Assembly: GCA_963837165.1 (NCBI GenBank)
Contig: CAWIMD010000002.1
Span: 1,031,029-1,095,028 of the forward strand
DNA: 64,000 nt
From: Vicinamibacteria bacterium
GTDB lineage: Bacteria; Acidobacteriota; Vicinamibacteria; Vicinamibacterales; JAENWD01
Direction of reading: 5' to 3'
A program made the position numbers and the translations under genes. Each line of letters starts with the position of its first letter. Positions within the stretch are counted from its first letter, which is position 1. Shown in pieces: positions 20,621-42,164 of the stretch. Below the pieces are notes generated by a model. That model did not search any database. It was not told the origin of the DNA and was given only the letters and a program-made list of their open reading frames with translations.

Positions 20621-20665
20621 GAACCGTGGACATGTGAACCCGTGAACCCGAGAACCCGTGAACCT
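20621..20665 (-). repeat. Family E array (GGTTCACG/GGTTCTCG, about 5 units, read on the minus strand)
   Basis: The minus strand reads TAG ACG AGGTTCACGGGTTCTCGGGTTCACGGGTTCAC..., directly after the sulfite reductase stop. Confidence 0.9.
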
Positions 20666-20668
20666 CGT

Positions 20669-22515
20669 CTACACGCTGCACTCCCCGTCCAGGATCTCCG
20701 GCGTGTACGTGGTCGTCTCGCCCAGGTCGATGAAGTCCTCGGGCGTTGCGGTCTCCTCGGTCAGCGGCTCGAGATCGTGCAGCGTCGCTTTCACGTCGTC
20801 CAGGCCGACGCGCTGGAAGAATGCCGTCGGCACTTCGCCGTCGTGCCGCTTGTCCATGATACAGGCCAATCAGCCGCTCCAGTGCGATCGGATCCCGGCG
20901 CGCCGGGATCTTGGCGGCGAGACGGCCGAACGTGACGCCATCTGCCGTGGCGCCGCCGCCGACCATCACGAAATACTGCGGCACCGCGCGGCCGCCGACC
21001 TTCCGGATGCTGCCCTGGAATCCGACGCCCGCCACATGATGCTGCCCGCAGCCGTTCGGGCATCCGCTCATCTTGACGACGAGGCCCGGCGCCGCGGCCG
21101 CCAGGTCGGGACGCGCCTCGAGCGCGTCGTGGAGCGATCGGCCGAGCCCGCGCGACTGGGTCACCGCCAGGCGGCAGGATTCGGCGCCCGGGCAGCTCGT
21201 CACGTTGGTCGGCAGCCCCGACTCGGCGCGTCCGAGCCCCGCGGCGGCCAGACGTTCGTAGACGGCCTCGACCCGCTTGATGGGAATCCAGCGCAGCACG
21301 AGATCCTGATCGATGGTGACGCGCGCCGTGCCGTCGCCAAACGACTGCGCGACCAGGGCAATCGCGCGGAACTGCTCGGCGGTCAGGTCGCCCAGCGGCA
21401 ACGTCACGGTCACGGCCGCATGGCCCGCCTGCTTCTGCGGACGCACGTTGCGCCGCTGCCATGCCGCGAAATCCGCGTCGACGACGGTCAGCGCCGGCCG
21501 GCGCTCCGGGTGAATCCCGGGCCCGGTCGTCGCCTGACCGAGCACGCGGGCGGCAATCTCCGCGACTGAGGGCGGCGCGGGCCGCTGCCAGTCCGGCGCG
21601 GCCTCCTGCGGCGGGTGCTGGGGATCGAACGGCAGTGCGGGTACGCCTTCGGCCCGCACCTCCTCGAGCTCGCGGCGGTACTCCGCCTCGAACCGGTCCC
21701 ACCCGATCGCCTTGATCAGGAACTTCATCCGGTTCCGCTGCTTGTGCTTGTAGTCGCCGAGCCGGTGGAACACACGAAGCACGGCCTCGGCCGACGCCAG
21801 CATCTCCTCCACGGGCAGGAACGCGTGCAGCTCGCCCGCGCCGCGACACATGGTCGCGGTGCCGCCGCCCGCGATGACGCGGAACCCGCGGACCGAACGG
21901 CCGTCGACGTCCCGTACGCGTCCCTGCCACCCGATGTCGTGGATGGCCGTGAGCGCGTGATCCTCCGCGCATCCCTCGAACGCGATCTTGAACTTGCGCG
22001 GCAGCGAGCCGCTCAGCCGGTGCCGCAGGAAGTAGCGCGTCAGCGCCTCGCTGTACGGCGTCACGTCGAACGCCTCGTCGGCGGCGATGCCGGCCCAGGG
22101 GCACGCGGTGATGTTGCGCACCGAGTTGCCGCACGCCTCTCGCGTCGTCAGGCCGTCCTCGGCCAGCCGTCGCATCGCGGGCTCCACGTCGTGAAGCTTC
22201 ACGAAGTGCATCTGGATGTTCTGGCGCGTGGTGATGTGCGACCAGCCGCGCGAGTACTGCTCCGAGACCTCGGCCAGCGCCTCCATCTGGCGCGCCGTCA
22301 CGAGCCCCTGCGGGATCTTGATGCGCAGCATCTGCGCGTCCTCGGCCTGGCGCTGCCCGTACGTGCCGCGCACGAGCCGGAAGGCCCGCCACTGGTCCGG
22401 GGCTGATCTCGCCGCGCTCGAACTTCCCGAGCGTATCGGCGAACTCGTCGATGTCGGCTTCGCTGGCAAACGACAGCCTGGCGCGGCCGAGCGTCGTCAC
22501 GTCCGTGGTGGCCAT
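20669..22515 (-). pseudogene. Ferredoxin-type sulfite reductase (siroheme/4Fe-4S) interrupted by two 1-nt frame breaks (or assembly indels)
   Basis: The N-terminus MATTDV...FERGEISP (frame of ORF 20791..22515) continues as DQWRAFRLVRGTYGQRQ in the frame of ORF 20454..22469. The break is near 22397-22403. The C-terminus ...IALERLIGLY continues as MDKRHDGEVPTAFFQRV...GECSV in ORF 20669..20869, with the break near 20855-20868. Cluster motifs CPGAESCR and SGCPNGCGQH are present. Confidence 0.8.
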
Positions 22516-22521
22516 GGCAAA

Positions 22522-23298
22522 TTACCCCCGTCCCTCGAATTCCTGTTGGTCGCCGTCGGACACGACCTCGATGACGCCCCCGATGAGCGACGCGAGTGCC
22601 GACGACGGCGCCGATGACGATCGTGCCGGCCAGCTCGCCGTCCACGGGCGCCGCCGCCAGCTCGTCGAGCCGTCCCGACCAGGCGCGGGCGCCCGGATGA
22701 CCGGCGCCGAGCACCACGGCGACAGGCGTCGATGCCGTCCATCCGGCCTGCAGCAGTCGCGCGGCAATCGCAGCCCGCGTGGCCAGCCCCATCATGACCA
22801 CCACGGTGGCGGCCTGCGGCGTCATGCCCGTCCAGCACCGGCTGCCACGCCGTCGTCCGCGTGACCCGACACGATGACGACGGCGGTGGAGAGCGCCACG
22901 ATGGGTGACCGGGATCGCCGAGCAGCGCCGGTGCGGCCAGCGACGCGCTGACGCCCGGGCACGACCTCCACGCTGATCCCAGCCGCTTTCAACGCGAGGG
23001 CCTCTTCCCCGCCGCGCCCGAACAGAAACGGATCCCCGCCCTTCAGGCGCACGACACGCCGGCCGCGCGAGGCCGCGCGAATCATCAGCCGGTTGATCGC
23101 GTCCTGGGTCATCGCGTGCCGCCCGCGCCGCTTGCCGACGTAGAACCGGCGCGCCCGCTTCGCAATCCCGACCACGGCATCCGACACGAGCGCGTCGTAC
23201 AGCACCAGGTCGGCCCGGCGCAGCAGCGCGACCGCGCGCCGCGTCAGCAGCCCGGGGTCTCCCGGTCCCGCACCGACGAGCGCGACCCGTGCGCTCAT
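22522..23298 (-). pseudogene. cobA: Uroporphyrinogen-III C-methyltransferase with at least 5 frame breaks
   Basis: ATG 23298. VALVGAGPGDPGLLT and LKGGDPFLFGRGGEE read in one frame. VSASLAAPALLG, AIPVTHRGAL and STAVVIVSGH then read in three successive frames (22888-22953). The C-terminal TVVVMMGLATRAAIAARL...GTIVIGAVV and the tail to 22522 are in further frames. Confidence 0.75.
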
Positions 23299-23876
23299 GC
23301 GGTCACCTCCTCGGTGCGCGCCGCATACAGCCCGTTGATCGCGGCCAGCAGCAGCGGGCGCCGCTCGTGCATGGGCACGCCGTCGGCACGCCACGTGCGG
23401 CGCAATCGCTCGGCCAGTTGCCTCCACTGGTCGAGGTCGTCCGGCAGCAGCGCCTCGAGGCCCTGCCGCACCAGGCCGGCCAGCGCCGGCGCACGGCCAT
23501 CGGTGGAGATGGCCACGACGACGCCGCTCTTCCGGACGACGCCGCCCAGGTAGGCCGACGCGTTTGCGGGATCGTCCACGGCATTGACGAACAGCCGCCG
23601 CTTCGCCGCTTCCCCGGCTACCTGCCGGTTGACGTCCGGCGACGCCGCCGCCACCACGAACCAGGCCTCGTCGAGATCCGCGGGCACGAACCCCCGTCGC
23701 TCGATCCGGACGCCGGCGTCGACGATCTCGCGCACGACGTCGGGCGCGACGACGACGACCTCGGCGTGCGCGGCGAGCAGCGCGCCAATCTTGGAGGCGG
23801 CCACCGGCCCACCGCCGACGACGGTCACGCGGCGGCCGTCCAGCTTCAGAAATGCCGGGAACAGATCGGTGGCCAT
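23295..23876 (-). CDS. Precorrin-2 dehydrogenase / sirohydrochlorin ferrochelatase (siroheme synthase N-terminal domain type)
   Basis: RVTVVGGGPVAASK Rossmann motif and FVNAVDDP. ATG 23876 shares 1 nt with the sat/cysC stop. The stop overlaps the cobA ATG. Confidence 0.8.
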   Translation of the reverse strand: MATDLFPAFLKLDGRRVTVVGGGPVAASKIGALLAAHAEVVVVAPDVVREIVDAGVRIERRGFVPADLDEAWFVVAAASPDVNRQVAGEAAKRRLFVNAVDDPANASAYLGGVVRKSGVVVAISTDGRAPALAGLVRQGLEALLPDDLDQWRQLAERLRRTWRADGVPMHERRPLLLAAINGLYAARTEEVTA

Positions 23877-25684
23877 CAGCGTCCCAGGGCGGCAACCGAC
23901 GCGCCGCTCGCGGCGAGCGGTGACGCGTCCACCAGGCCGCGGCTGGCGAGCGCCGCGACGATCCGGTCCAGGCTCTCTTCGACCGACTCGCGATCGGTCC
24001 GCACGACCACGTCCGGCCGGTCCGGCGGCTCGTACGGATCCGACACGCCGGTGAAGTTCGCCAGCTCGCCGGCCAGGGCCTTCTTGTAGAGCCCCTTCAC
24101 GTCGCGGGCCGCGAGGGCGTCGATGGCCGCGTCCGCGTGCACCTCCACGAAGGGCACGCCGTCACGATCGGCAGCGGCCCGGATCTCGTCGCGCGTGGCC
24201 GCGTAGGGCGAGATGGCGGCGCCAATCGCCACCGCACCGTTTCGCGCCAGCAGCCGCGCGACGAACCCGATGCGCCGGATGTTCGTGTCGCGATCCTCCT
24301 TCGAGAAGCCCAGCCCCTTCGACAGGTGGGTCCGCACCTCGTCGCCGTCGAGAATCTCGACGGGACGCGACGAGCCGAGCCGCGACCGCAGGGCCTCGGC
24401 CAGGGTGCTCTTGCCCGCGCCGGACAGGCCGGTGAACCACACGATGTACCCGCCGCGGGCGTTCCGTGGCGCGGGTGGGGCCGACGGCGCGGAGCCGGTC
24501 GCAGGGGCCGCTGCCGGCTGCTCGCCGGCAGTCCCGACGTAGTGCGCGCGCAGGATCTCGGCGACCTCCGGCCGCGTGAACTCCGGCGGCAGGTGTCCTC
24601 CGGCGCGGAGGATCTCACGCACTCTGGTGCCCGACAGCTCGAGACGGCTCGCGGCGTCGTGCGGGCAGCTCTTCGTCGACGCCAGCGTGCCGCAGGCCCG
24701 GCAAAAGAAGGTCGGATCGAGCTTCAGCGGCGCGACGCCGAGCTCCTCCGCTGTGAACTGATCGAAAATCCGCTGCGCCGCCAGCGGCTCGTAGTATTTC
24801 CCGACGCCGGCGTGGTCGCGCCCGACGATGAGGTGGGTGATGCCGTAGTTCTTGCGCACGAGCGCGTGGAAGAGCGCCTCGCGCGGGCCGGCGTAGCGCA
24901 TGGCGGCCGGGAAGGCGGCAAGCAGCGTGCGGTCGCGCGGGTAGTACCGCTCGAGCAGGGCCTGGTAGGCCTGAAACCGCACCGCGGCAGGCACGTCGTC
25001 CTGCTTCGTCTCGCCGACGAGCGGGTGAATGACGAGGCCGTCGGTGACCTCGAGCGCGACCTTGGTCAGGTGCTCGTGTGCGCGGTGGATCGGGTTGCGT
25101 GTCTGGAAGCCGGCGACCGTGCGCCAGCCCAGCGCCTCGATCCTCGCGCGGAGCTCGCGCGGCGACAGGCGATAGGCGGCAAACGGCCGATCCTCGCCGA
25201 GCGGCAGGACCTTCACCGGACCGCCCACCAGCCGGGTCGGCCGCGCCAGCAGATAGGCGACCCCGGGATGCGCGGGGTCGTCAGTGCCGTACACGGCACG
25301 CGCCTCGGCCTTCGGGTCTCGCGTGAACACGTCGGTGACCGAGATCACGCCCCACCGGCGGCCCTCGCCGTCGACGAGCGCGCGCTCGTCGCCCGGTGTC
25401 ACAGATTCGCGTTCGTCCACGGCCAGCGTGAACGGCAGCGGCCAGACCGTTCCGTCGGCCAGGCGCATCCGCGTGAGCACCGAGGCATAGTCGGCCTCGC
25501 CAAGAAAGCCGGTCAGCGGGCTCGCGGCGCCGGTTGCGATGAGCTCCAGATCGGCCTGCTCGCGCGCGTCGAGATGGAAGACCGGCAGCGTCGCCGCCAG
25601 CGCGTCGAGGGCGGGCGCCTCGGCGGCAGGAACGATGCGGTCCACCAGCGTGCCGCCATGGGGTCGTACGGTCGAGACGCTCAC
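23876..25684 (-). CDS. Bifunctional sulfate adenylyltransferase / adenylylsulfate kinase
   Basis: ATP sulfurylase motifs [13 protein letters not shown] and GRDHAG. C-terminal APS kinase P-loop [12 protein letters not shown] 25684 overlaps the cysH stop (GTGA). Confidence 0.9.
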
Positions 25685-27146: not shown

Positions 27147-27249
27147 GGGGCCTCCTCGGGACGGGCACGCGAGAGGTTCGGGCGGTGCGGCGACGACATC
27201 GGCAATCTCCAGACAGACCATCGGGGCCGCACCGGAATGGGGCGGCCCG

Positions 27250-27288: not shown

Positions 27289-27426
27289 TTCAGGTCGTCT
27301 GCGTGTGCCGGTGTGTCAGCGTGTGGCTGTCCGGCGCGGGCGAAGACCTGCGGCGCGGGGGCCCTTCCGGGCCTCGCGACAACAACAACAGGTCATGCGC
27401 ATCCGCGTGGTCATGGAATCTGGCGT

Positions 27427-29425: not shown

Positions 29426-30808
29426 ATGCTCTCCCGCCGCCGATTTCTGGCCACGCTGGCCGCGTCGCTGACCGCAGGCCGCGGCGCGCTCCATGCCGGT
29501 CCGCGCTCCCCGGCGTGGCACACGCCCGTTCCCGAGGCGGGCTGGGGGTACGGACAGGCGTTCGGCCTGGCCGTACGCCAGAACCGCCGCCTCCCCGAGG
29601 GGCTGCCACCCTCGCTGCCGAGAGCGGTCCCGCGGCTGCCGCCGCTGGACGCCGCGCAGACCGGCCGGCTCCTGCGCGCCCGGTTCCCCGATCTGAAACA
29701 GCGATTCCTGTTCGAGTACTACCCGTGGTACGGCAACAACCCCTGGCGGCACTGGAACCAGTGGGACCGCGTCCCTCCGTACGACCTGGCGGTGACGTCC
29801 GTGCCGGCTCTCGGCCCGTACGATTCCCGCGACCCCGCCGTCGTCGAACGGCACGCCCGCTGGATCGCGGAGGCCGGCGTCGGGGGCGTGAACATCAGCT
29901 GGTGGGGCCGTGGGAGCTGGGAAGACCTCGCGACGCCGCTCGTGATGGACGTCATGCGCGATCACGGCCTCAAGGTGGCGTTCCACCTCGAGCCGTACAA
30001 CGATTCGCGCACCGAAAACTACGCCGGCGACATCCAGTACCTGCTGCGTGAGTACGGCGACAAGCGGCGGTGGGACTGCTTCCTGCTCCTGCGGGACGCC
30101 GGCGGCAGGGAAGTGCCGGTCTTCAAGTCGTTCGCGACCCTGCTGCCACAGACCTCGACCGACTGTCACGGCGTCACGTCCCGTGTGGCGCTCTGGCGTC
30201 CCGACGGAACGTGGCGCCGTCAGACGGACACGGTACGCGACACGTTCCGAGGCGACTTCGACCGGATCTACCTGCTCGCCGACTCCGGCGCGCTGGACCA
30301 CGTCCAGGTCTGCGGCTTCGACGGCATCGCGATGTACGACAGCTTTCTCAGACCGACGCGGTGGCCGGATCTGGCAAAGGCCTGCCGCGACTTCCACCTC
30401 GTGTACTCGTTCAACATCAACTCGGGATTCGACGGCATCGCCCAGCGCAACGTGCCGGCGGACTCCTGTTATCGGCCGACCCCGTTCGAGCCGCCGGCCA
30501 ACCTCGATTTCACCGATCCGGACCAGCGGGAGCTGGCGCGCCGGCTGTCGGAACACCGCATGGAGGAATCGTTCCGGGCCACGCTGATCGTGCAGACCGA
30601 CCCGGCGCTGACCGACACCGGCGACGGCTTCTTCCTCGTCTACATCAACTCGTTCAACGAGTGGCACGAGGGCACGGCGATGGAGCCGGCGCGCGATCAC
30701 GCGGCGCTGCTGCCGCAGGAGTCGCCGTACGGCTACCACAACGCCGCCCAGGGCAACTACCGGCTGGCGTACCTCACCGAACGGCTGGGCGAACTGCTCG
30801 CCGGTTAA
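29426..30808 (+). CDS. Glycoside hydrolase family 99-like (endo-alpha-mannosidase-like), Tat signal
   Basis: Twin-arginine signal MLSRRRFLATL. Motifs FEYYPWYG, ISWWGRG and NSFNEWHEGT resemble GH99. Confidence 0.62.
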   Translation: MLSRRRFLATLAASLTAGRGALHAGPRSPAWHTPVPEAGWGYGQAFGLAVRQNRRLPEGLPPSLPRAVPRLPPLDAAQTGRLLRARFPDLKQRFLFEYYPWYGNNPWRHWNQWDRVPPYDLAVTSVPALGPYDSRDPAVVERHARWIAEAGVGGVNISWWGRGSWEDLATPLVMDVMRDHGLKVAFHLEPYNDSRTENYAGDIQYLLREYGDKRRWDCFLLLRDAGGREVPVFKSFATLLPQTSTDCHGVTSRVALWRPDGTWRRQTDTVRDTFRGDFDRIYLLADSGALDHVQVCGFDGIAMYDSFLRPTRWPDLAKACRDFHLVYSFNINSGFDGIAQRNVPADSCYRPTPFEPPANLDFTDPDQRELARRLSEHRMEESFRATLIVQTDPALTDTGDGFFLVYINSFNEWHEGTAMEPARDHAALLPQESPYGYHNAAQGNYRLAYLTERLGELLAG

Positions 30809-30925
30809 TCCCCAGCCCCCCAGATCCCCAGATCCCCAGCCCCCCAGATCCCCAGATCCCCAGATCCCCAGATCCCCAGATCCCCAGATCCCCAGATCCC
30901 CAGATCCCCAGATCCCCAGATCCCC
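30809..30925 (-). repeat. Family B octamer array (12 x AGATCCCC plus 2 x AGCCCCCC on the plus strand; GGGGATCT on the minus strand)
   Basis: Read directly. Spans the entire spacer between the GH99 TAA (30806-30808) and the amidohydrolase TAG (30925-30927). Confidence 0.97.
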
Positions 30926-32360: not shown

Positions 32361-33962
32361 CTACCGGTTCCGATAAACGACCGCCCGCCACACCTCCACT
32401 CGAGTGCCCGTGGAGTGCGGGTTGGCCGCGCCCGCCGTCACGATCTTCACGGTGTGCATGCCGGGCTTCAGCCCGTAGACGTGCCAGAGCGCGTCATCGT
32501 GGGTGCGCTCGGGGATCCAGCTGTCGATGGGCCTGGCGGCCTTGCCGTCGAGCAGGACGTCCGCGCGGCCCCCCTGCTGCGACAAGCCGCCCAGCAGCGT
32601 CGCCGCTGTGCCGGTGAACGTGAACGTGACCTCCGCGCCGGCGGCATCCGTCGAGAACCCGACCCCCCGTGCGCCGTCCCTCCCCGGACCGATCGGTTCC
32701 CAGCCGCGCCCCCACTGCCAGGCGGGCCGATCGGCGGGCACGACCTCGGTGGGCACGCCCATGTCCCACTGTTCGAGCGCCGGCGGCTTCGCGGTCTGCG
32801 CCGGGATGACGAGCGCGTCCTGCTCGACCCGGCCGCCCGCCAGTCGCACGACCTGCTCGGCCCGCTTCATCGTGGACGAGACGATGTCGTCGAAGGAGTA
32901 GTCGGTGTAGGAGAACTTCTTCCCGGCGAGCGCGGGGATGCCGGCCTTCCACTGGTCCGGGATCCGGTCGTAGCCCAGCATGACGCCCAGGATGCCTGCC
33001 GCGCTCGACGGGTTGCAGTCCGAGTCCTGGCCGGATCGGGTCGCGACGTCCAGCGTCCGGTCGAAGTCTCCGCCCCCGTACAGCAGGCCGAGGGCCACGT
33101 ATCCCCCGTTCAGCTTCGCGTCGATGTTGAAGGGCTCGAGCGACCCGTCCGGGCACGCGTCGTTCCTGTCCCACGTGTCCTCGAGCAGCTGCCACGTCGC
33201 CTTCCAGTCGTCGGGGTGTGCGTCGTGCCAGGCCAGCACGTCGCGGATCACCGCCGCGTACTGGCTGCCCGTCGGCAACGCGGCCAGGCCCGCCTCGACC
33301 ACCCGGTGCGGGTCGGTCTCGAAGAAGGCCGCGGCGTACATGCCGGTGATGAAGAGGCCGCCGTACAGACCGTCGCCGGAGTTCATCACGCGTCCGACGC
33401 GCAGGCAGTAGTCACGCGCCGCCCGGGGAAGCCCTGGCGTCATCAGGCCGATGAAGTCCGACTCGATCTGGAAGTCGATGTCGTTGGCGTGCGGGTTGTA
33501 CCCCGGCTCGCCGGACCGCGGCGCCTCGATCCCCAGGTTCAGCAGCCGTCGGGCGCCGGCGTTGGCGTGCCAGAGGTTGTACTGGGACGTTCGGAACGCC
33601 TCGCCGTACTGCGCCGTCGTGGCATCGAGGCCGAGGCGGTCCATCACGGCCGCGAACGTCATCTCGACGTAGAGATCGTCCTGGTCGATGGCGTTGCCGA
33701 CGTGATCGGGCTGCCACCTCGGCAGCGGGCCTTCGATGATCCGGCCGTTGGAGTGGAACTCGGTCGGGGCGCCGAACGAGACGCCGATCATCTGTCCGGC
33801 CCAGCCGCCGCGCACCCGGTCCTCGAACTCGGCTCTCGACAGCCGCCGCTCGGTCCCCGCGGCGCGCCCGGCCGGGCCCGACGTGAGCACGAGTCCCAGG
33901 GTCAGGACCGCCAGCGCGACCGGCCGGAAACAGCGTGACATGCGGTGAGTTTGTACCCGCAC
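32361..33962 (-). CDS. ADP-ribosylglycohydrolase family protein, secreted, with a C-terminal beta-sandwich extension
   Basis: GGWAGQMIGVSFG...DDLYVEM...SGQDSDCNPSSAAGILG motifs of the ARH/DraG fold. Signal peptide present. Confidence 0.78.
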   Translation of the reverse strand: MRVQTHRMSRCFRPVALAVLTLGLVLTSGPAGRAAGTERRLSRAEFEDRVRGGWAGQMIGVSFGAPTEFHSNGRIIEGPLPRWQPDHVGNAIDQDDLYVEMTFAAVMDRLGLDATTAQYGEAFRTSQYNLWHANAGARRLLNLGIEAPRSGEPGYNPHANDIDFQIESDFIGLMTPGLPRAARDYCLRVGRVMNSGDGLYGGLFITGMYAAAFFETDPHRVVEAGLAALPTGSQYAAVIRDVLAWHDAHPDDWKATWQLLEDTWDRNDACPDGSLEPFNIDAKLNGGYVALGLLYGGGDFDRTLDVATRSGQDSDCNPSSAAGILGVMLGYDRIPDQWKAGIPALAGKKFSYTDYSFDDIVSSTMKRAEQVVRLAGGRVEQDALVIPAQTAKPPALEQWDMGVPTEVVPADRPAWQWGRGWEPIGPGRDGARGVGFSTDAAGAEVTFTFTGTAATLLGGLSQQGGRADVLLDGKAARPIDSWIPERTHDDALWHVYGLKPGMHTVKIVTAGAANPHSTGTRVEVWRAVVYRNR

Positions 33963-34097: not shown

Positions 34098-34102
34098 GGG
34101 AA

Positions 34103-35224
34103 TTGACCGCGGTACAAGTAACCGATTACGATCTGGGCGCCGTGACGGACGAGTTCCGCAACTTCGGCGCCCCGACGCCCGGGCGCCCACGCGAGGTGGC
34201 CAGCGCTCCCACGATTCGGCAGGTGGCCGCCATGGCGGGCGTGTCCACGGCCACGGTCTCTCGAGTGCTGGCGCGGTCCGGCCGGGTGAGCCCCGATCTC
34301 GAAGCCCGCGTCCGGAGCGCCGCAAAGTCGCTCAACTACCAGCCCAATCGCGCCGCGCGCACCCTGCGCGCGCGCCAGGGCTCGACGGTCGGCGTCCTCA
34401 TTCCCGACATCCAGAACCTGTTCTTCACCGCCATCGTGCGCGGCATCGACGACGAGGTGCAGAAGCACGGGTACACGGTGCTGCTGGCCAACTCCGACGG
34501 CTCGCTCGAGCGCGAGCGCGTCTACCTCGATACGTTCCGCGCGGAAGGCGCGGCGGGCCTGCTGGTGATCCCCTCGCAGAACGACGAGCGCATCTACCGC
34601 GAGTTCCTGCAGACCGGCGTGCCGCTGGTGGTGCTCGATCGCACGGTGCACCTGCCCAACGTCGACCTCGTGTCGGTCACCAACAGCGAAGGATCCGCGC
34701 AGGCGGTCACGCACCTCGCCTCCCTCGGTCACCGGCGCATTGCGATGGTGGCGGGCCTGGAGTCGCACAACGTCGGGCGCGAACGGCGGGTCGGTTTCCT
34801 GGTGGGCCTCGAGTCGGCCGGAGTTCCCCTCGACCCGGCCCTGATCCGCGATGGTGGCTTCGAGCGCGAGCGTGCCCGTGTCGCCACGCACGAACTGCTC
34901 GGGCTGCCGGATCCCCCGACGGCAATCTTCAGCGCGAACAACACCATGTCGCTCGGCGTCCTGCAGGCGATCCACGAACGCGGCCTGCGGTCGCCGGAGG
35001 ACGTGTCGGTCGTGGGCTTCGACGACATGCCCTGGCAGGTGGCCACACAGCCGCCGCTCACGTGCATCTCGCAGCCGACCTACGACATCGGCGCGACGGC
35101 GGCACGGCTCCTGATCGCGCGCATCGGCGACCCCGACCGGCCCGTCCGGCGCGTGGTGCTCGAGACCGCCCTCGTCGTGCGCGGGTCGTCCGGGCCGCCG
35201 CCCCGCCGGAGCTCGGCCGCATGA
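34103..35224 (+). CDS. LacI family transcriptional regulator
   Basis: HTH TIRQVAAMAGVSTATVSRVL plus a periplasmic-binding-protein-like effector domain. The start is uncertain (TTG 34103 or GTG 34196). Confidence 0.85.
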   Translation: MTAVQVTDYDLGAVTDEFRNFGAPTPGRPREVASAPTIRQVAAMAGVSTATVSRVLARSGRVSPDLEARVRSAAKSLNYQPNRAARTLRARQGSTVGVLIPDIQNLFFTAIVRGIDDEVQKHGYTVLLANSDGSLERERVYLDTFRAEGAAGLLVIPSQNDERIYREFLQTGVPLVVLDRTVHLPNVDLVSVTNSEGSAQAVTHLASLGHRRIAMVAGLESHNVGRERRVGFLVGLESAGVPLDPALIRDGGFERERARVATHELLGLPDPPTAIFSANNTMSLGVLQAIHERGLRSPEDVSVVGFDDMPWQVATQPPLTCISQPTYDIGATAARLLIARIGDPDRPVRRVVLETALVVRGSSGPPPRRSSAA

Positions 35225-36309
35225 GGCACATCTCCCGCCGGGCCGCCCTCGTCGTCATCACGCTGTCGCTGCTGAGCGCGTGTTCCAGCGGCCGTCCCGA
35301 TCGTCCCGTGGTCGCGCTGGTCATGAAGTCGCTCGCCAACGAGTTCTTCAAGACGATGGAGGATGGGGCCAGGGCGCACCAGGCCGCCCATGCGGCGGAC
35401 TACGAGCTGGTGGCGACGGGCATCAAGGACGAGCAGGACGTCGCGCGCCAGATTGCAATCGTCGAGCAGATGATCGCGCGGGGCGTGGATGCCATCGTCC
35501 TCGCCCCGGCCGATTCGAAGGCCCTGGTCGGGGTGGTCAAGAAGGCGCTCGACGCCGGCATCGTCGTCGTGAACATCGACAACCGGCTCGACCGCGACGC
35601 GATGGTCGAGCGCGGCATCTCGGTCCCCTTCGTGGGCCCCGACAACCGGAAGGGCGCCCACGCGGTGGGCGCGTACGTGGCGAAGCGCCTGAAGCCCGGC
35701 GATCCGGTGGCCATCATCGAGGGCGCTCCCAACGCGTTCAACGGCGAACAGCGCCGCCTCGGGTTCGGCGAGGCCGCACGCGAGGCCGGTCTCGTCGTGG
35801 TCCGATCGCAGACGGCCTACTGGGAAACCGCGCGGGCCCACCAGGTGGTGACCGCCCTCATCAGTGAACGTCCTGACGTGAAGGCCATCCTCTGTGCGAA
35901 CGACAACATGGCTCTCGGCGCAGTGGCGGCGCTCAAGGCGGCGGGCAGGAGCGGTCAGGTGCTGGTCGCCGGCTTCGACAACATCTCCGCCGTGCACGAC
36001 CTCGTCCAGAGCGGCGGCGTGGTCGCCACCGCCGACCAGCACGGCGATCGGCTCGCCGTGTACGGCATCGAGTACGCGCTGGCCGGCCTGCAGGCACGGG
36101 GCACCACCCGCCCCGATCGTGAGACGCCCGTCGACCTGATCACGCCGCAGAACACAAAGGACACAAAGGACACAAAGGACACAAAGGACACAAGGAAAAG
36201 GACACGAAGGACACGAAGGACACGAAGGACACGAAGACCCAGAACCCATAAACCCACAACCCCACAAGCCCACAAACCCACAAGCCCCACAAACCCACAA
36301 ACCCATTAA
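35221..36309 (+). CDS. Sugar ABC transporter substrate-binding lipoprotein (ribose-binding type)
   Basis: ATG 35221 overlaps the LacI stop (ATGA). Lipobox LLSACSS and an RbsB-like fold. The last ~55 codons (NTKDTKDTKD...TRRTRRTRR...KPTSPTNPQTH) are read-through of repeat arrays C1 and H. Confidence 0.82.
   Translation: MRHISRRAALVVITLSLLSACSSGRPDRPVVALVMKSLANEFFKTMEDGARAHQAAHAADYELVATGIKDEQDVARQIAIVEQMIARGVDAIVLAPADSKALVGVVKKALDAGIVVVNIDNRLDRDAMVERGISVPFVGPDNRKGAHAVGAYVAKRLKPGDPVAIIEGAPNAFNGEQRRLGFGEAAREAGLVVVRSQTAYWETARAHQVVTALISERPDVKAILCANDNMALGAVAALKAAGRSGQVLVAGFDNISAVHDLVQSGGVVATADQHGDRLAVYGIEYALAGLQARGTTRPDRETPVDLITPQNTKDTKDTKDTKDTRKRTRRTRRTRRTRRPRTHKPTTPQAHKPTSPTNPQTH
36152..36237 (+). 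repeat. Family C nonamer array (ACACAAAGG x4, degenerate junction, ACACGAAGG x4)
   Basis: Read directly. Confidence 0.95.
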
Positions 36310-36336
36310 CCAACAAACCCATACCCTCCCAGACCC
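36238..36336 (+). repeat. Family H array (CCCACAAN-type, about 11 units of 7-9 nt)
   Basis: Reads CCCAGAA CCCATAAA CCCACAAC CCCACAAG CCCACAAA CCCACAAG CCCCACAAA CCCACAAA CCCATTAAC ... Confidence 0.9.
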
Positions 36337-36340
36337 AGCG

Positions 36341-37291
36341 ATGCGAAGGAGAATCGCGACCGAGAGTGCCGGTCTCGTCGGCGTGCTCGTGCTGCTTGCC
36401 GCGGCCTTCGGCGTGCTCACCAGCCACTTCCTCTCCTGGACGACCGCGCGCGCGCTTGCGAATGAGGCGCCGGATCTTCTGCTGGTCGCGACCGGGATGA
36501 CGCTCGTCATCCTGACCGGAGGCATCGACCTCTCCGTGGGCTCGCTCCTGGCGCTGTCGGGCGCCGTGTTCGGGCAGCTGATTGCGCGGAGCGGAGCCGC
36601 GCTGCCCCTGGCGGTGGCTGGGGCAATTGTCACCGGCGCGGGCTGCGGCTGGCTGAACGGCTGGATCACCGTGCGCTGGCGGTTGCCGTCGTTTCTCGTG
36701 ACGCTTGCGATGCTCGAAATGGCGCGCGGCGCGGCCTACCTGGTGACCTCCTCGCAGACGGTGTACCTCGGCGCGCGCGTCGACGTCGTATCGGCGCCGC
36801 TCGTCGCCGGCCTCGGGCCGCCGGTGCTGGTGGCAGTGGCGGTCGTGGCGCTCGGCCAGTGGACGCTCGACCGGCTCGTGTTCGGGCGACAGGTCTTCGC
36901 GGTGGGCACCAACGAGGAATCGGCGAGGCTGGCGGGCATCTCGCCGGGCCGTATCCGCATTGCCGTGTTCACGCTGTCGGGCCTGCTGGCCGGTGCGGCG
37001 GCAGTCGTGCAGGCCGGGCGGCTCGCGGCGGCCGATCCGAACGCGGGCATGGGGTTCGAGCTCGAGGCGATCGCCGCCGTGGTCATCGGCGGGACGAGCC
37101 TGACGGGCGGCCGCGGCTCGGTCGTCGCATCCGCGCTGGGGGCGCTGGTCATCCTGGTCCTCGGAGCCGGCCTCGCGCAGATGGGAGTCGGGGAGCCGAC
37201 CCGGCGCCTGGTGACGGGCGCGGTGATCGTGTCGGCGGCTGTTACGGACTATTACCGGGGAGGATGGGGGCACAGGAGGATGGGAGGATAG
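36341..37291 (+). CDS. Sugar ABC transporter permease (RbsC type)
   Basis: 10-TM BPD-type permease (LTGGIDLSVGS, AVGTNEESARLAGI). The stop TAG 37289-37291 lies inside repeat D1. Confidence 0.85.
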   Translation: MRRRIATESAGLVGVLVLLAAAFGVLTSHFLSWTTARALANEAPDLLLVATGMTLVILTGGIDLSVGSLLALSGAVFGQLIARSGAALPLAVAGAIVTGAGCGWLNGWITVRWRLPSFLVTLAMLEMARGAAYLVTSSQTVYLGARVDVVSAPLVAGLGPPVLVAVAVVALGQWTLDRLVFGRQVFAVGTNEESARLAGISPGRIRIAVFTLSGLLAGAAAVVQAGRLAAADPNAGMGFELEAIAAVVIGGTSLTGGRGSVVASALGALVILVLGAGLAQMGVGEPTRRLVTGAVIVSAAVTDYYRGGWGHRRMGG

Positions 37292-37325
37292 GAGGATAGG
37301 AGGATGGGAGGATAGGAGGATGGGG
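37260..37325 (+). repeat. Family D octamer array (GAGGATGG / GAGGATAG, 8 units)
   Basis: Read directly. Contains the rbsC-type stop and the ribokinase ATG. Confidence 0.95.
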
Positions 37326-38252
37326 CCCGCCATCGTTGTCGTCGGCAGCCTGAACGCGGATCTGTGCGTGCGGGTCCCGCGTTTCCCCACGCCCGGTGAG
37401 ACGATCGCCGGGCACGGCTTCACGGTCGTCCCTGGCGGCAAGGGCGCGAACCAGGCCTGCGCTGCGGGACGACTCGGCGGCCGCGTGGCAATGGCCGGGC
37501 AGGTCGGCGGCGACGCGCAGGGCCGGATGCTGCGCGACTCGCTCCGGCGTGCGCACGTGGACGTGAGCCTGGTGTCGGTGGACGGCGACGAGCCAACCGG
37601 CGTGGCGGTGATCACGGTGGATGCGTGGGGCGAGAACGAGATCGTGCTGGCCCCGGGCGCCAACGCCACGTTCACGGCCGGGCGCCTCGAGGGGGCCGAA
37701 GCCGTGATCCGCGGCGCGCGGGTCGTGCTCCTGCAGCTCGAGATCCCCATGGACACGGTGCTCCGGGCCGCGGCGACGGCGCGCGCGGCCGGCGTGAGGG
37801 TCGTCCTCGACCCCGCCCCCGCCGTCCCGGTCTCCGACGAACTGCTGGGGCTGGCCGATATCGTGACCCCCAATGAGGGCGAGCTGGCGCGCCTGGTCGG
37901 CGCCGCAGCGCACGAGCATCTGCCGGAACCGGCGATCGACGCGCAGGCCCGTGCGCTCCTGGCCCGAGGCTGCGCCATCGTGATCGTGAAGATGGGCGCC
38001 CGCGGCGCCCGTCTCGTGACGGCAGACGACGCCCGGACGTGGCCGTCGTTCCCAGTCACGGCGGTGGACACGACCGCGGCCGGAGATGCCTTCAACGGCG
38101 CGCTCGCCGTCGCGCTCGCTGACGAGCGCGCCCTCGGCGACGCCATGCGGTTCGCGACCGCCGCAGGCGCGCTGTCGGTGACGCGCCACGGCGCCCAGCC
38201 TTCGATGCCAGCCAGAGCGGACGTCGAACGTCTCCTCGCCACCGCGCGGTAG
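37320..38252 (+). CDS. rbsK: Ribokinase
   Basis: VVGSLNADL, GGKGANQA and DTTAAGDAFNGAL motifs. Confidence 0.9.
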   Translation: MGPAIVVVGSLNADLCVRVPRFPTPGETIAGHGFTVVPGGKGANQACAAGRLGGRVAMAGQVGGDAQGRMLRDSLRRAHVDVSLVSVDGDEPTGVAVITVDAWGENEIVLAPGANATFTAGRLEGAEAVIRGARVVLLQLEIPMDTVLRAAATARAAGVRVVLDPAPAVPVSDELLGLADIVTPNEGELARLVGAAAHEHLPEPAIDAQARALLARGCAIVIVKMGARGARLVTADDARTWPSFPVTAVDTTAAGDAFNGALAVALADERALGDAMRFATAAGALSVTRHGAQPSMPARADVERLLATAR

Positions 38253-38256
38253 GCGT

Positions 38257-38300
38257 TCAATCGTCAATCGTCAATCGTCAATCATCAATCAATTACAATC
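38257..38300 (+). repeat. Family A heptamer array (TCAATCG x3, TCAATCA x2, degenerate tail)
   Basis: Read directly. Lies between the ribokinase TAG and the oxidoreductase ATG. Confidence 0.92.
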
Positions 38301-38305
38301 CCGGC

Positions 38306-39403
38306 ATGCCTGTTCGCGTCGCCCTGATCGGCACCGGCAAGGTCGCCCTCGCCAACCATCTTCCCGGCGTGCAGCTGGCGCGGGACGCCAGGCTCACGGC
38401 CCTCTGCGACCCGAACGAGGACGCCCTCGCCGAGGCCGTGCGCGTGAGCGGCGTGACCCGCACGTGGACCGATCCGCTGACCCTGCTCCGCGAGGCCGAG
38501 GTGGACGCCGTCATCATCGCCACGCCGAACCGCGTGCACCGCGACGTCGCGGTGGCCGCGGCCGAGAGCGGCCGCCACGTGCTCTGCGAGAAGCCGCTCG
38601 CGCTCAGCGTCGAGCAGGCGGAGGACATGCTGGCCGCCGCCGAGCACGCGCGCGTGCGGCACATGACGGCCTTCACGTACCGGTTCGTGCCCGCCATGCA
38701 GTACATGCGGCACCTCGTGCGCAGCGGTGCCGTCGGCCAGCCGTGGCACTTCCGCGCGCAGCGCTTCCAGGACTGGGGACGCCGGGCGCTCGGCTGGCGC
38801 CAGCGGCTCTCCGAGGCGGGGTCGGGTGAGGTGGGTGACATGCTCTCGCACCGGCTCGACTTCGCGCACTATCTGGTCGGCCCGATCGCCCGCGTGATGG
38901 CGCTCACGACACGGGTGTGGGAGACGCGGCTGGACGAGGTCGGCCACGAGCAGCCGGCCGACACCGAGGACTGGGTGGGCTGCCTCGCCGAGTTCGCCTC
39001 GGGGGTCACCGGCGTGCTCGAGAGCGTCAAGACCGCGGCCGGGTACGCCGGCGGCGTCACGAGCCGCGACTGGTGCGAAGTGAACGGCAGCGACGGCGCG
39101 GTCGTCTACGACCTGTCGCATCCGCTGCGCGTGCTCGTTGCGCGAAAGGGCGGCACCTACGAGCCGGTGGACGTTCCGACGGAGTTCCGCAAGATCGCGG
39201 GGTCGCCGCGGGATCCGGACGCCGACCCGTGGCAGGCCTTCCGCTACGACCAGGACTACGAGTTCGTCGATGCCATTCACGCCGGCCGGCCGTGCGCGCC
39301 CTCGTTTCTGGACGGCCTGCGCGTGCAGGAAGTGATGGCGGCCATCCTGCAGTCGGCGCGGGAGCACCGCGCGATCGCGATCGAGGGGCATGGGCGAGTC
39401 TGA
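38306..39403 (+). CDS. Gfo/Idh/MocA family oxidoreductase
   Basis: N-terminal Rossmann motif VALIGTGKVA and an EKP motif (HVLCEKPLA). Confidence 0.85.
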   Translation: MPVRVALIGTGKVALANHLPGVQLARDARLTALCDPNEDALAEAVRVSGVTRTWTDPLTLLREAEVDAVIIATPNRVHRDVAVAAAESGRHVLCEKPLALSVEQAEDMLAAAEHARVRHMTAFTYRFVPAMQYMRHLVRSGAVGQPWHFRAQRFQDWGRRALGWRQRLSEAGSGEVGDMLSHRLDFAHYLVGPIARVMALTTRVWETRLDEVGHEQPADTEDWVGCLAEFASGVTGVLESVKTAAGYAGGVTSRDWCEVNGSDGAVVYDLSHPLRVLVARKGGTYEPVDVPTEFRKIAGSPRDPDADPWQAFRYDQDYEFVDAIHAGRPCAPSFLDGLRVQEVMAAILQSAREHRAIAIEGHGRV

Positions 39404-40970
39404 AACGGGCGTGATCTCGCCGACTCCGCGCGCCGCGCCCTGGCCCGGCTCCCACCGCATGCCGCGCTGGGACGTCGGCGAGCTGCCGGCGGCGCCCGTC
39501 TTCAGCTGGCGCACCGCCGCAGCCATGGTCGGACCTGGCCTGATCCTGGCGGGCTCGTCGATCGGCGGCGGCGAGTGGCTGCTCGGACCGGCCGTGGCCG
39601 CGCAGTACGGCGGCGCGCTCCTGTGGGTCGCCACGCTCAGCATCCTGAGCCAGGTCGTCTACAACATCGAGGCGAGCCGGTACGCCCTCTACACGGGCGA
39701 GCCGATCATGACCGGCAAGTTCCGCACGCTGCCGGGGCCGGGGGCGTGGCTGCTCGTCTACCTCCTGCTCGACCTCGGCGCACTGCTCCCCTACCAGATC
39801 GGCAGCGTGGCGACGCCCGTGCTCGCGATCTGGATGGGCCGCCTGCCGCAGCCCGGCGCGGTGGCCGGGCAGGCCGACCTGCTGCGGTGGCTCTCGTGTG
39901 GGCTGCTCGTGCTGGCGCTGCTGCCGCTGGCATTCGGCGGCAAGGTCTACCACTCGCTGCGCGCCATCATGACGGTGAAGATTGCCGTCGTGTTCGGGTT
40001 CCTGCTCTTTCTCGCCTTCGGATTCTCGACGCTGGCCACGTGGCAGGACATCGGCGTCGGCCTGCTGCGGTTCGGTGAGCTGCCCCTCGGCCAGGGCCAC
40101 ACGGAGAACCTGTTCGGCGCGCTCTGGCACGGCCGTCCCCTGCCGCGGCCCGACCGCGCGTCGCTGATGCTGATGACGGCGTTCGCCGCCATTGCCGGTG
40201 TCGGCGGGCTGGCCCAGACCAGCATCAGCAACTACACACGCGACCAGGGCTGGGGCATGGGATCGCAGGTCGGGGCCATTCCGAGCTTCGTCGGGGGCCG
40301 CGCCATCGAGCTGTCTCACGTCGGCAAGGTGTTCGAGCCGGGTCCCGCCGCTCGCGCCCGCTGGAGCGGCTGGGTGAGGCAGGTCCTGCGGGATCAGTGG
40401 TTCGTGTGGCTTCCCGCCTCCTTCATCGGTCTCGCCCTGCCCGCCATGCTGTCGGTGCAGTTCCTGCCCCGGGGCACCGTGGCCGATACCTGGGTGCTGG
40501 CGGGGCTGACCGCCGGCGGCGTGCGCGATCACCTCGGGGGACTGCTGGGCCTCGCCTGCTGGTACATGGTGCTCGTCTGCGGGATCCTGGTGATCGTGCC
40601 GAACAGCACGTCGGCCGCCGACGCGTTCATCCGGCGCTGGGTCGAGCTCTCGTGGACGGGCATCCCGGCGGTCAGGCGCTGGAACACACACGCGATCCGC
40701 ACGCTCTACTTCAGCGTGCTCGCCGGCTACCTCGCCGTGGGCGTCTTCTTCCTCTCCGTCGCGCGCCCGCTCGGGCTCATCGTCCTCTACGGCAACCTCG
40801 GCAACTTCGCGCTCGGCATCAGCTGCTGGCACGTGCTGTACGTGAATCTGACGCTGCTGCCGCCCGAAGTGCAGCCCGGGTGGGCCGCCCGGATTGGCCT
40901 CGCCCTCGGCGGCGCCTACTTCCTCGGGCTGGCGCTGCTCACGGCCGCCGTCGCGCTCGGGGCGGGGTAG
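39390..40970 (+). CDS. Nramp-related membrane transporter (non-canonical; DPGN motif not seen)
   Basis: About 11-12 TM segments. GPGLILAGSSIGGGEWLLGP resembles the Nramp TM1 region. The start overlaps the oxidoreductase end by 14 nt. Confidence 0.55.
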   Translation: MGESETGVISPTPRAAPWPGSHRMPRWDVGELPAAPVFSWRTAAAMVGPGLILAGSSIGGGEWLLGPAVAAQYGGALLWVATLSILSQVVYNIEASRYALYTGEPIMTGKFRTLPGPGAWLLVYLLLDLGALLPYQIGSVATPVLAIWMGRLPQPGAVAGQADLLRWLSCGLLVLALLPLAFGGKVYHSLRAIMTVKIAVVFGFLLFLAFGFSTLATWQDIGVGLLRFGELPLGQGHTENLFGALWHGRPLPRPDRASLMLMTAFAAIAGVGGLAQTSISNYTRDQGWGMGSQVGAIPSFVGGRAIELSHVGKVFEPGPAARARWSGWVRQVLRDQWFVWLPASFIGLALPAMLSVQFLPRGTVADTWVLAGLTAGGVRDHLGGLLGLACWYMVLVCGILVIVPNSTSAADAFIRRWVELSWTGIPAVRRWNTHAIRTLYFSVLAGYLAVGVFFLSVARPLGLIVLYGNLGNFALGISCWHVLYVNLTLLPPEVQPGWAARIGLALGGAYFLGLALLTAAVALGAG

Positions 40971-40974
40971 GCGA

Positions 40975-41017
40975 GGTTCACGGGTTCACGGTTCACGGTT
41001 CTCGGTTCTCGGTTCGG
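40975..41017 (+). repeat. Family E array (GGTTCACG/GTTCACG/GTTCTCG, 6 units)
   Basis: Reads TAG GCG AGGTTCACGGGTTCACGGTTCACGGTTCTCGGTTCTCGGTTCGG, directly after the transporter stop. Confidence 0.92.
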
Positions 41018-41352
41018 AAGCGCGCGACGATGTCGTCCGTGGCCTGGCGCAGGAGGCCCAGATCGCTGGCCACGGCGACGAAGGTGAAGCCCATTTCAAA
41101 GAAGGCCTTCGCGTCGGCCTCGACGGTCGCGAGGATGCCGATCGGGGTGCCCGCCTTCAGGGCGCGGGCACCGAGCTGCTCGATGGCCGCCCGCACCTCC
41201 GGGTGTCGGTTGTTGCCCAGGTGCCCCAGCGCCGGCCAGGTCGGACGGACCGATGAAGCCACCGTCCACACCCTCGACGGCCGCGATCTCCTCCATCTCT
41301 GCTTCCGGCCTTCGGCTATCGCGCGCTTGAACGTGTCGATCGGCAGCTCCAT
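40993..41352 (-). pseudogene. HpcH/HpaI aldolase remnant (internal deletion plus frameshift)
   Basis: The N-terminal 18 aa MELPIDTFKRAIAEGRKQ join directly (about 41296-41299) to EEIAAVEGVDGGFIGPSDLAG in another frame. The sequence then returns (about 41230-41238) to ALGHLGNNRHPEVRAAIEQLGARALKAGTPIGILATVEADAKAFFEMGFTFVAVASD. Roughly 145 central codons are missing. Confidence 0.72.
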
Positions 41353-41355
41353 CAG

Positions 41356-41439
41356 CCCCTATCCTCCCATCCTCCCATCCTCCCATCCTCCCATCCTCCC
41401 ATCCTCCCATCCTCCTATCCTCCTATCCTCCCATCCTCC
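41356..41439 (-). repeat. Family D octamer array (TCCCATCC/TCCTATCC on the plus strand, about 10 units)
   Basis: Read directly. The minus strand reads GGAGGATGG... ending 4 nt before the remnant ATG. Confidence 0.95.
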
Positions 41440-41455
41440 GCTGTATGATTCCCCG

Positions 41456-42118
41456 ATGATGATCTCACGCCAGCTCGCCCGATTCGTGCCCGCGGCCGGA
41501 CTCGGCCTGATCCTCGCGACGATGATGTCCGCCGTACCGGCAGCCGCACCAGCCGACGGCTGGGTGTCGCTCTTCGACGGCAAGACGCTGGACGGCTGGA
41601 AGGCCAGCGACGAGCCAGGCACCTTCCGCGTCGAGGACGGCGCCATCGTCGTCAATGGGCCGCGGTCGCACCTGTTCTACGTCGGGCCCGTCAACAACCA
41701 CGTGTTCACGAACTTCGAGTGGAAGGCCGACGTGATGACGTTTCCGGGGTCGAACTCGGGAATGTACGTCGACACCGAGTACCAGGAGACCGGCTGGCCC
41801 TCGAAGGGCTACGAAGTCCAGGTCAACAACTCGCACACCGATCCGATCCGGACGGGAAGCCTCTACGGAATCGTCAACGTGCTCGAGCGGTTCGTGCCGG
41901 ACAACGAGTGGTTCACGCAGGACATCACCGTCCAGGGCAAGCGCGTCGTGGTGAAGATCAACGACCGGGTCGTGGTGGACTACACGGAGCCCGACAACCC
42001 GCTGCGGGGCGCCGATCAGGCCAACCGCCGCATCGCCCCCGGCACCTTCGCCCTGCAGGGGCACGACCCGAACAGCAAGGTCCTCTACAAGAACATCATG
42101 GTTCGGACTCTGCCGTAG
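41456..42118 (+). CDS. DUF1080 (3-keto-disaccharide hydrolase-like) secreted protein
   Basis: WVSLFDGKTLDGWK...ALQGHDPNSKVLYKNI is characteristic of DUF1080. Signal peptide present. Confidence 0.8.
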   Translation: MMISRQLARFVPAAGLGLILATMMSAVPAAAPADGWVSLFDGKTLDGWKASDEPGTFRVEDGAIVVNGPRSHLFYVGPVNNHVFTNFEWKADVMTFPGSNSGMYVDTEYQETGWPSKGYEVQVNNSHTDPIRTGSLYGIVNVLERFVPDNEWFTQDITVQGKRVVVKINDRVVVDYTEPDNPLRGADQANRRIAPGTFALQGHDPNSKVLYKNIMVRTLP

Positions 42119-42121
42119 CGA

Positions 42122-42164
42122 GGTTCACGGTTCCCGGTTCACGGTTCCCGGTTCTCGGTTCTCG
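42122..42164 (+). repeat. Family E heptamer array (GGTTCAC GGTTCCC GGTTCAC GGTTCCC GGTTCTC GGTTCTC)
   Basis: Reads TAG CG AGGTTCAC..., directly after the DUF1080 stop. Confidence 0.95.

Follow-up and report, generated by a model that had tools for sequence, protein, structure and literature searches.

In Xanthomonas and Nostoc, GGGNATC heptamers are found in intergenic regions, at most 50 bp past stop codons and on the coding strand (Rehm et al. 2015, PMC4692102). Relatives differ in these repeats, for which no function is known (PMC4692102). Heptamers are reported to be the commonest class of long simple repeat in many bacteria, and polymerase slippage has been proposed as their source (Mrazek 2007, as cited in PMC4679880). 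In marine Beggiatoaceae, TAACTGA direct repeats, usually in 2-6 copies, are located a few nucleotides (nt) upstream of gene starts (MacGregor 2015, PMC4679880), and they have been proposed as a site for a single-strand RNA-binding protein of the S1, Csp or CsrA families (PMC4679880). Here we analysed tandem GGTTCNC arrays, referred to as family E, in a 64 kb stretch of a Vicinamibacteria genome with 70% GC (contig CAWIMD010000002.1, positions 1,031,029 to 1,095,028; hereafter the window). Short tandemly repeated repetitive (STRR) heptamers of cyanobacteria are comparable long simple repeats. Our literature search found no treatment of such repeats in Vicinamibacteria and no description of tandem GGTTCAC/GTGAACC arrays.

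The window contained four family E arrays (A1 to A4), with the unit RGGTTCNC. We suggest, with a probability of roughly 0.55, that they are lineage-specific long simple sequence repeats which are driven by slippage, held to one strand by a constraint linked to the adjoining gene, and related by shared descent. Family E is not a conserved, structured, sequence-specific signal of the 3′ untranslated region (3′-UTR).

Position and orientation of the family E arrays

The four arrays and the stop codons that precede them were located as follows.

20634-20665, minus strand: array A1, four octamers (AGGTTCAC GGGTTCTC GGGTTCAC GGGTTCAC), 3 nt (ACG, 20666-20668) past the sulfite reductase stop
20669-20671, minus strand: true TAG stop of the sulfite reductase gene, after the C-terminus ...DGECSV; both are shared by the orthologue in L122
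32320-32360, minus strand: array A2, ATTCTC and then GGTTCTC GGTTCAC GGTTCAC GGTTCTC GGTTCTA, 0 nt past the ADP-ribosylglycohydrolase (ARH) stop
32361-32363, minus strand: TAG stop of the ARH gene (32361..33941)
40974-41017, plus strand: array A3, AGGTTCAC GGGTTCAC GGTTCAC GGTTCTC GGTTCTC GGTTCGG, 3 nt (GCG) past the stop of an Nramp-family transporter
40968-40970, plus strand: TAG stop of the Nramp-family transporter gene (39390..40970)
42121-42163, plus strand: array A4, AGGTTCAC GGTTCCC GGTTCAC GGTTCCC GGTTCTC GGTTCTC, 2 nt (CG) past the DUF1080 stop
42116-42118, plus strand: TAG stop of the DUF1080 / 3-keto-disaccharide hydrolase gene (41456..42118)

Each array consisted of 4-6 units of 7 or 8 nt, with GGTTC in the sense of the gene ending there. 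The sequence-only reading that this analysis followed up had placed four arrays 0-3 nt past gene stops and in gene-sense orientation, and both statements were confirmed at all four places (A1 and A2 on the minus strand, A3 and A4 on the plus strand). Its unit of 7 nt needs correcting for A1, where the period is 8, and for the first units of A3, octamers as well. In each of the four arrays TRF detected 4-6 copies. A two-unit pattern matched 14 times in the window against 0.59 expected, a number that none of 100 shuffles reached.

The gene names proposed from the letters alone were upheld by Pfam and by the names of homologues. Pfam domains identified three of the proteins (NIR_SIR for the sulfite reductase, ADP_ribosyl_GH, and 3keto-disac_hyd, which equals DUF1080). 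The 526-amino-acid (aa) protein upstream of A3 had no Pfam match, and its homologues are named 'Nramp family divalent metal transporter'. Named homologues of the window proteins, at 57-61% identity, came from Vicinamibacterales, Blastocatellales and 'Acidobacteria bacterium', which makes a Vicinamibacteria-like member of the Acidobacteriota the probable source. The open reading frame (ORF) of the sulfite reductase appears to be frameshifted some 200 nt upstream of its end (roughly 20850-20900), and its true stop is therefore missed in mechanical ORF lists.

All four arrays were non-coding and lay past the stops of their upstream genes, A3 overlapping just the end of a truncated gene remnant. 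This remnant of an HpcH/HpaI aldolase gene (40993-41352, minus strand) has 119 codons, which match the Pfam profile in its C-terminal third only; L248, L249 and L124 have an intact gene (253-263 aa) at the corresponding place. The remnant ORF runs six codons into A3 and stops at the antisense TGA (40993-40995) of a GTGAACC unit. The antisense strand had been thought to supply TGA in all three frames, which holds for an idealised (GTGAACC)n but for none of the real arrays, each of which has stops in two frames. No stop triplets are present in sense. The notion of TAG as a special target was unsupported: the called ORFs end in 23 TAG, 29 TGA and 4 TAA codons, with TAG the usual stop of non-overlapping genes in the window and TGA frequent in overlapping gene pairs. 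A2 is identical in an independently assembled contig of a sister strain (L121), and the repeats are therefore not an assembly artefact. Similar arrays are also carried by Illumina-based metagenome contigs.

The sense orientation of all four arrays had been held to be hard to reconcile with neutral slippage. On the window alone this argument is weak (p=0.06, one-sided), but the bias persisted when relatives were included, with eight sense arrays against none that was clearly antisense. The lineage sample comprised the loci of relatives and 120 soil-metagenome contigs picked solely for carrying the hairpin element described below. E-like arrays abutting a stop were in sense in all eight unambiguous cases: the four of the window, two in L245 (one after Nramp, one after a GH2 gene), one in L169 (TAG-A-(AGGTTCCAG)n, behind a thiolase) and one in L244 (TAG-CG-(AGGTTCTC...)n, behind a xylose-isomerase-like gene). 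The one-sided p value is about 0.004; treating the two Nramp arrays, and likewise the neighbouring A3 and A4, as non-independent raises it to about 0.03.

The GGTTC orientation of family E exemplifies a general rule in this lineage, by which the sense strand of stop-abutting arrays is rich in G+T. For all families together we considered arrays with a period of 6-10 nt whose sole neighbour within 16 nt was an upstream stop. In the window and the relatives the sense strand was the G+T-rich one in 25 cases against 5 (p=3e-4), or 24 against 5 when counted by unit family. G exceeded C on the sense strand in 24 arrays against 7, and T exceeded A in 23 against 6. Without the window and without family E the counts were 15 against 5 (p=0.04). 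Ordinary 3′ flanks had no such skew in the first 40 nt after 248 array-free stops (G-C -0.003, T-A +0.013), and inheritance of local flank composition by the arrays was rejected for this reason. We also rejected the arrays as a stop-codon backstop in all frames: stop triplets on the sense strand numbered 13 against 7, which is not significant, and the E arrays had none. A third candidate, sprouting from a conserved single-copy AGGTTC, was rejected since neither this motif nor GGTTC was enriched on the 3′ side of array-free stops (GGTTC 8 against GAACC 12, AGGTTC 0).

Orientation tracked the gene and not the chromosome strand, as both strands were used within 22 kb (A1 and A2 on one, A3 and A4 on the other) and each array followed its gene. 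A replication-strand cause was rejected on this basis, and the rule should therefore be tied to transcription or translation. Given the lineage-wide sense bias and the strand rule, slippage without a strand constraint is insufficient.

The sense bias of the GGTTCNC sequence was not seen in the other phyla sampled. A scan for (GGTTCNC)3 across phyla, with one genome per species, gave at least 120 loci in many phyla. Among the matches listed, arrays at a confident stop were sense-only in 14 cases and antisense-only in 18, those between co-directional genes were sense in 19 and antisense in 17, and in high-GC loci those lying strictly downstream of the stop were split 10 to 10. With such balanced counts, the sequence itself has no universal orientation. 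E-like arrays among the same matches were still richer in G than in C on the sense strand (15 against 2).

Turnover, structure and the shared junction

Syntenic loci of relatives were compared at the ARH gene (L122, L123 and L124, with 81%, 78% and 71% protein identity) and at the Nramp gene (L246/L247 with 91%, L245 with 89%, L248 with 75% and L249 with 74%). None of the three ARH stops was followed by an E array; L123 has a different small array and the hairpin at this site, and L124 has the hairpin only. The E array was likewise absent past the sulfite reductase stop of L122, where the gene has the same end and the same TAG. No array was found at the Nramp stop of L246, L247, L248 and L249, in which 10-16 nt separate the convergent stops or an unrelated spacer follows. 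L245 alone keeps an array there, in sense and overlapping the TAG, with different units ((AGGTTCGC GGGTTCTC)x3). Its DUF1080/NIPSNAP spacer has two units only, in the opposite orientation to that of the window; they are in sense to NIPSNAP and furnish the TGA of DUF1080. Given these absences and the reversal at orthologous sites, the arrays are young and turning over, and the orientation at a given gene is not conserved. Array density also differed sharply among the relatives. Recent insertion of Nramp and DUF1080 together with their arrays was considered and rejected, as L245 has both the GFO-Nramp and the DUF1080-NIPSNAP neighbourhoods. A scan of a genome collection detected no locus related to the window.

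The sister-strain contig L121, from assembly ERZ25039539, is 98.9% identical to the window over 18.3 kb. All indels of at least 4 nt between the two fall in arrays: 24 nt gained in GGGGATCT, and 14 nt lost and 4 nt gained in the ACACAAAGG/AACCCACA block.

The family E arrays are predicted to be unstructured and matched none of the known signals examined. With flanks included, A1-A3 folded as RNA slightly less stably than shuffles (z of +0.68, +0.69 and +1.07), while the A4 region is structured (z -2.0) owing to the adjoining hairpin GGCCGAACTGAAGTTCGGCC. No quadruplex was predicted in A1-A4, and ViennaRNA structure and energy were unchanged when quadruplexes were enabled. There was no Rfam match at gathering score in the whole window and no terminator-like site at any family E array. 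Intrinsic terminators consist of a GC-rich hairpin and a U-tract behind it, and such a tract is missing from the hairpin next to A4. Rho utilisation (rut) sites are unstructured, C-rich and G-poor RNA. The sense RNAs of A1-A4 with short flanks did not have this composition, with G counts of 17, 16, 24 and 16 against C counts of 13, 15, 15 and 17. The units are directly adjacent and 7-8 nt long, unlike those of CRISPR arrays, in which unique spacers lie between repeats of at least 20 nt, and as direct repeats without self-complementarity they also differ from repetitive extragenic palindromic (REP) elements and bacterial interspersed mosaic elements (BIMEs).

The junction described from the letters as near-identical at three of the four arrays is in fact identical at A1, A3 and A4: CGAGGTTCAC has three occurrences in 64 kb, exclusively at these junctions. 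AGGTTC forms the first unit in 8 of 10 lineage arrays and never an internal unit in the window. AGGTTC and GGGTTC octamers alternate in L244 and L245, which suggests an ancestral octamer RGGTTCNC whose edge unit was spared homogenisation. In L244, a different genome, an unrelated gene precedes TAG-CG-AGGTTC, an array and a copy of the hairpin that adjoins A4, with 83.7% identity to window positions 42116-42194 over 86 nt. The likeness of this composite, together with the shared junction, points to copying between loci.

The hairpin and the array on its far side were mapped next to A4, and a second copy of the hairpin was present in the window.

42166-42194, minus strand: REP-like element (CGTACGTAG-GGCCGAACTTCAGTTCGGCC), GTAG and a hairpin with an 8-bp stem and a 4-nt loop, directly past A4
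53183-53202: degenerate copy of the REP-like element
42204-42242, minus strand: family B-like array, GATCAGG/GGGATCA in minus-strand sense, 6 nt past the stop of the convergent NIPSNAP gene

REP elements are GTAG-headed imperfect palindromes dispersed after genes, and the hairpin at 42166-42194 fits this form and is therefore called REP-like. It is also present in L123, L124 and L244, and at least 136 copies were found in at least 120 soil-metagenome loci (L125-L244). Its TAG is often the stop codon of the upstream gene, and TAGGG in 3′ flanks was counted 37 times against 4. An array lay within 40 nt of 15% of hairpins against 2.9% of random positions, a control that is mostly coding. We did not accept this proximity as a mechanistic link because of that control. 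In the convergent DUF1080/NIPSNAP pair each gene has its own sense-oriented array, one on either side of the hairpin.

Origin of the arrays

In the reading that we prefer, slipped-strand mispairing in the very short spacer after a stop would let arrays arise, grow, shrink and vanish. The octamer is probably ancestral, and the heptamers would have derived from it through loss of one G. The strand rule should stem from transcription or the mRNA, through either selection on the content of the untranslated 3′ tail or a strand asymmetry of array expansion behind the last ribosomes. The TAG-(N)CG-AGGTTC junction would then reflect common descent, with copying and little-homogenised edge units, rather than a functional motif.

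Several points weigh against this reading. The lineage sample is small, with eight E-like arrays that are not all independent and come partly from hairpin-selected contigs, and genes in the relatives were called from third-codon-position GC and not with a trained gene finder. Independent slippage would not lead one to expect an identical CGAGGTTCAC at three loci together with the TAG-CG-AGGTTC-hairpin arrangement of L244, so that copying between loci has to be assumed. A2 is unchanged between near-identical strains, and the instability of family E has thus not been directly observed. The array kept at the Nramp stop in two genomes, despite diverged spacers, could be a case of local selection.

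The sequence-only reading had proposed a 3′-UTR element for termination, RNA stability or protein binding. Its interpretation as a whole is partly supported, but a sequence-specific element with these functions is not: arrays are absent at most orthologous sites of relatives, predicted to be unstructured, without terminator or Rfam match, and random in orientation in other phyla (among the matches listed). Nor is family E special as a 3′ element, since stop-anchoring is common to most other array families of the window. A looser functional version is possible, if unlikely. In it, transcribed (GGUUCNC)n directly past a stop would offer a single-stranded platform for binding or a site for processing, to an RNA-binding protein or endoribonuclease for instance, setting mRNA 3′-end formation, stability or uncoupling from the next gene, and it would depend on copy number and strand rather than on exact sequence. 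The exact anchoring 0-3 nt past the stop, within spacers of 130-160 nt, is consistent with such an element, as are the eight sense arrays out of eight in the lineage and a GU-rich-sense rule that ordinary 3′ flanks do not follow. The arrays are predicted to be single-stranded, which fits a binding platform. The Nramp stop has an array in both the window and L245 despite differing units and flanks, and both convergent genes of the DUF1080/NIPSNAP pair have their own. However, most close relatives lack arrays at the orthologous sites, GGTTCNC orientation is random in other phyla (among the matches listed), and single-copy GGTTC or AGGTTC is not enriched after array-free stops. The upstream genes are also functionally unrelated, and no protein emerged as a candidate for binding.

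Somewhat less probable is dispersal of a mobile or recombining module. Here the junction and array, sometimes with the GTAG-hairpin, would be copied by a REP-associated transposase or by gene conversion, and orientation and junction would be inherited from the source copy rather than selected. The confinement of CGAGGTTCAC to three array junctions argues for copying, as do the AGGTTC edge unit, found first in 8 of 10 lineage arrays and never internally in the window, and the L244 composite (TAG-CG-AGGTTCTC..., array and hairpin, 83.7% over 86 nt, in a different genome behind an unrelated gene). The hairpin itself is highly dispersed (at least 136 copies in at least 120 soil-metagenome loci), with arrays no more than 40 nt from 15% of its copies against 2.9% of random positions. 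This enrichment may, however, just reflect a shared intergenic location, as the comparison was with random genomic positions, and 553 kb of hairpin-bearing contigs hold no strict GGTTCNC heptamer array and few E-like ones. No hairpin adjoins A1, A2 or A3, the arrays lack both terminal inverted repeats and target-site duplications, and no transposase gene lies near them. Copying also leaves unexplained why unrelated array families obey one strand rule.

It is still more doubtful that GU-rich stop-anchored arrays, often paired with the hairpin, form a general modular, strand-specific gene-end signal for transcript ends or insulation. If this were true, the signal would be renewed by slippage and copying in genomes seemingly without classical intrinsic terminators.

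Chance with neutral slippage, in which stop adjacency would come from tiny spacers and an untouchable promoter or ribosome-binding region of the next gene and the four sense arrays would be a small-sample accident, accords with the window's p of 0.06 (one-sided), with families A (TCAATCG) and C (ACACAAAGG/CACGAAGGG) occurring in both orientations relative to co-directional window genes, with the unbiased cross-phyla census (among the matches listed) and with minimal ancestral spacers such as those of L248 and L246, whose convergent stops lie 10-16 nt apart, but it is very unlikely in view of the eight sense arrays out of eight with relatives (p about 0.004, or about 0.03 after discounting possibly non-independent arrays), a cross-family strand rule that is significant also without the window and family E, and a shared 10-nt junction that is very improbable by accident.

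Other array families and comparison with known repeats

After removal of coding matches the window had about 18 intergenic arrays of 7-9-nt units. The recurring families were TCAATCG, GGGGATCT / GGGATCA (family B), ACACAAAGG / CACGAAGGG, GGGAGGAT and GGTTCNC (family E). Anchoring to stops was general, with 13 of the 18 arrays no more than 11 nt from a stop. The GGGGATCT arrays at 18932-19036 and 30808-30925 (11-15 units) have their G-rich strand in sense after stops. The second makes up the entire 118-nt spacer of two convergent genes and is 24 nt longer in L121; for the first, a quadruplex was predicted, with the energy changing from -35.8 to -84.4 kcal/mol (a gain of about 49 kcal/mol).

A periplasmic-binding-protein ORF (35221-36309) reads through ACACAAAGG and AACCCACA arrays (36152-36321), giving a repeat-encoded tail of about 45 residues; the proteins of relatives are about 315 aa long, and either the stop was lost or the assembly has an indel. 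The GGGAGGAT arrays (37258-37324 and 41361-41439, 8-10 units) are Shine-Dalgarno-like and lie directly 5′ of start codons. The former holds the stop of a permease and extends into the start of a PfkB kinase, and the latter lies between divergent genes. TCAATCG arrays fill spacers between co-directional genes (15768-15821, 38257-38290 and 51596-51664), two as CGATTGA in sense and one as TCAATCG. The CGATTGA orientation has a TGA in each unit and thus stops in all three frames, and the stop of gene 51663..53042 is inside one of the TCAATCG arrays.

The APS kinase is split in two in the sister strain (L121 16254-16819) by an apparent frameshift, and over 500 nt (window positions 22500-23000) the two near-identical strains differ by 75 mismatches and many 1-nt indels. 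The APS kinase and sulfite reductase frameshifts and this stretch look like long-read assembly noise or local hypervariability. Dense mixtures of different heptamer arrays, up to 20 in 8 kb, were seen in unrelated phyla (e.g. L014 Subsaximicrobium, L040 Bacteroidales and L001 Brevifollis); the spread of heptamers through whole genomes is therefore a widespread but patchy phenomenon.

Scattered bacterial lineages are rich in long simple repeats of 7-9-nt units, on whose function there is no agreement. To these the window adds an uncultured lineage from soil, with an array at nearly every gene end outside operons. Arrays turn over here within less than about 10-20% protein divergence, and the preference for the G+T-rich strand as mRNA extends across some 30 unrelated unit families. 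The question posed by post-stop heptamers thereby narrows to selection on the 3′ tail or transcription-linked asymmetry of repeat expansion. Should the bias be only mutational, the arrays would still be fast strain markers and a warning for gene callers: in the window they lengthen one ORF, give two genes their stop codons and coincide with assembly indels.

Family E has the properties of long simple sequence repeats with 5-11-nt units, namely an excess of tandem copies, a non-coding location and rapid gain and loss. It resembles the repeats surveyed by Mrazek, as far as these are described in the citing paper, in its head-to-tail 7-9-nt units, the predominance of heptamers, the many families per genome, the patchy distribution and the slippage proposed for it. 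What is cited there of such surveys reports neither a stop anchor nor an upstream-gene strand rule for units that are not G-rich. Like the TAACTGA repeats of Beggiatoaceae, it is one heptamer that recurs in small tandem groups in many intergenic spacers and keeps a set position relative to genes; being anchored at 3′ ends and not at 5′ ends, it is their mirror case. The location after stops, between convergent or tandem genes, is that of REP elements and BIMEs, but the units of family E are direct repeats that contain no palindrome and for which no hairpin is predicted.

The likeness is closest to the GGGNATC and GGGGA(C/T)T arrays of Xanthomonas and Nostoc. In both cases tandem 7-nt units are mostly intergenic, scarce between divergent genes and variable in length and sequence among close relatives; the flanking genes are of unrelated functional classes, and no function has been established. 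At 0-3 nt past the stop and in sense, family E lies well within the post-stop range of the class of Rehm et al. (2015; 50 bp or less, coding strand), but it lacks the four or more G-tracts needed for a quadruplex. Quadruplexes are predicted in family B of the window (GGGGATCT, GGGATCA), which resembles the Xanthomonas/Nostoc type. Family E further differs in a G-C skew of about zero, with an asymmetry mainly of T over A, in its position 0-3 nt from TAG, in a junction that is shared between loci and in its Acidobacteriota-like host with 70% GC. Family E is thus new within the known class of long simple sequence repeats, and the post-stop heptamers of Xanthomonas and Nostoc are its closest counterpart.

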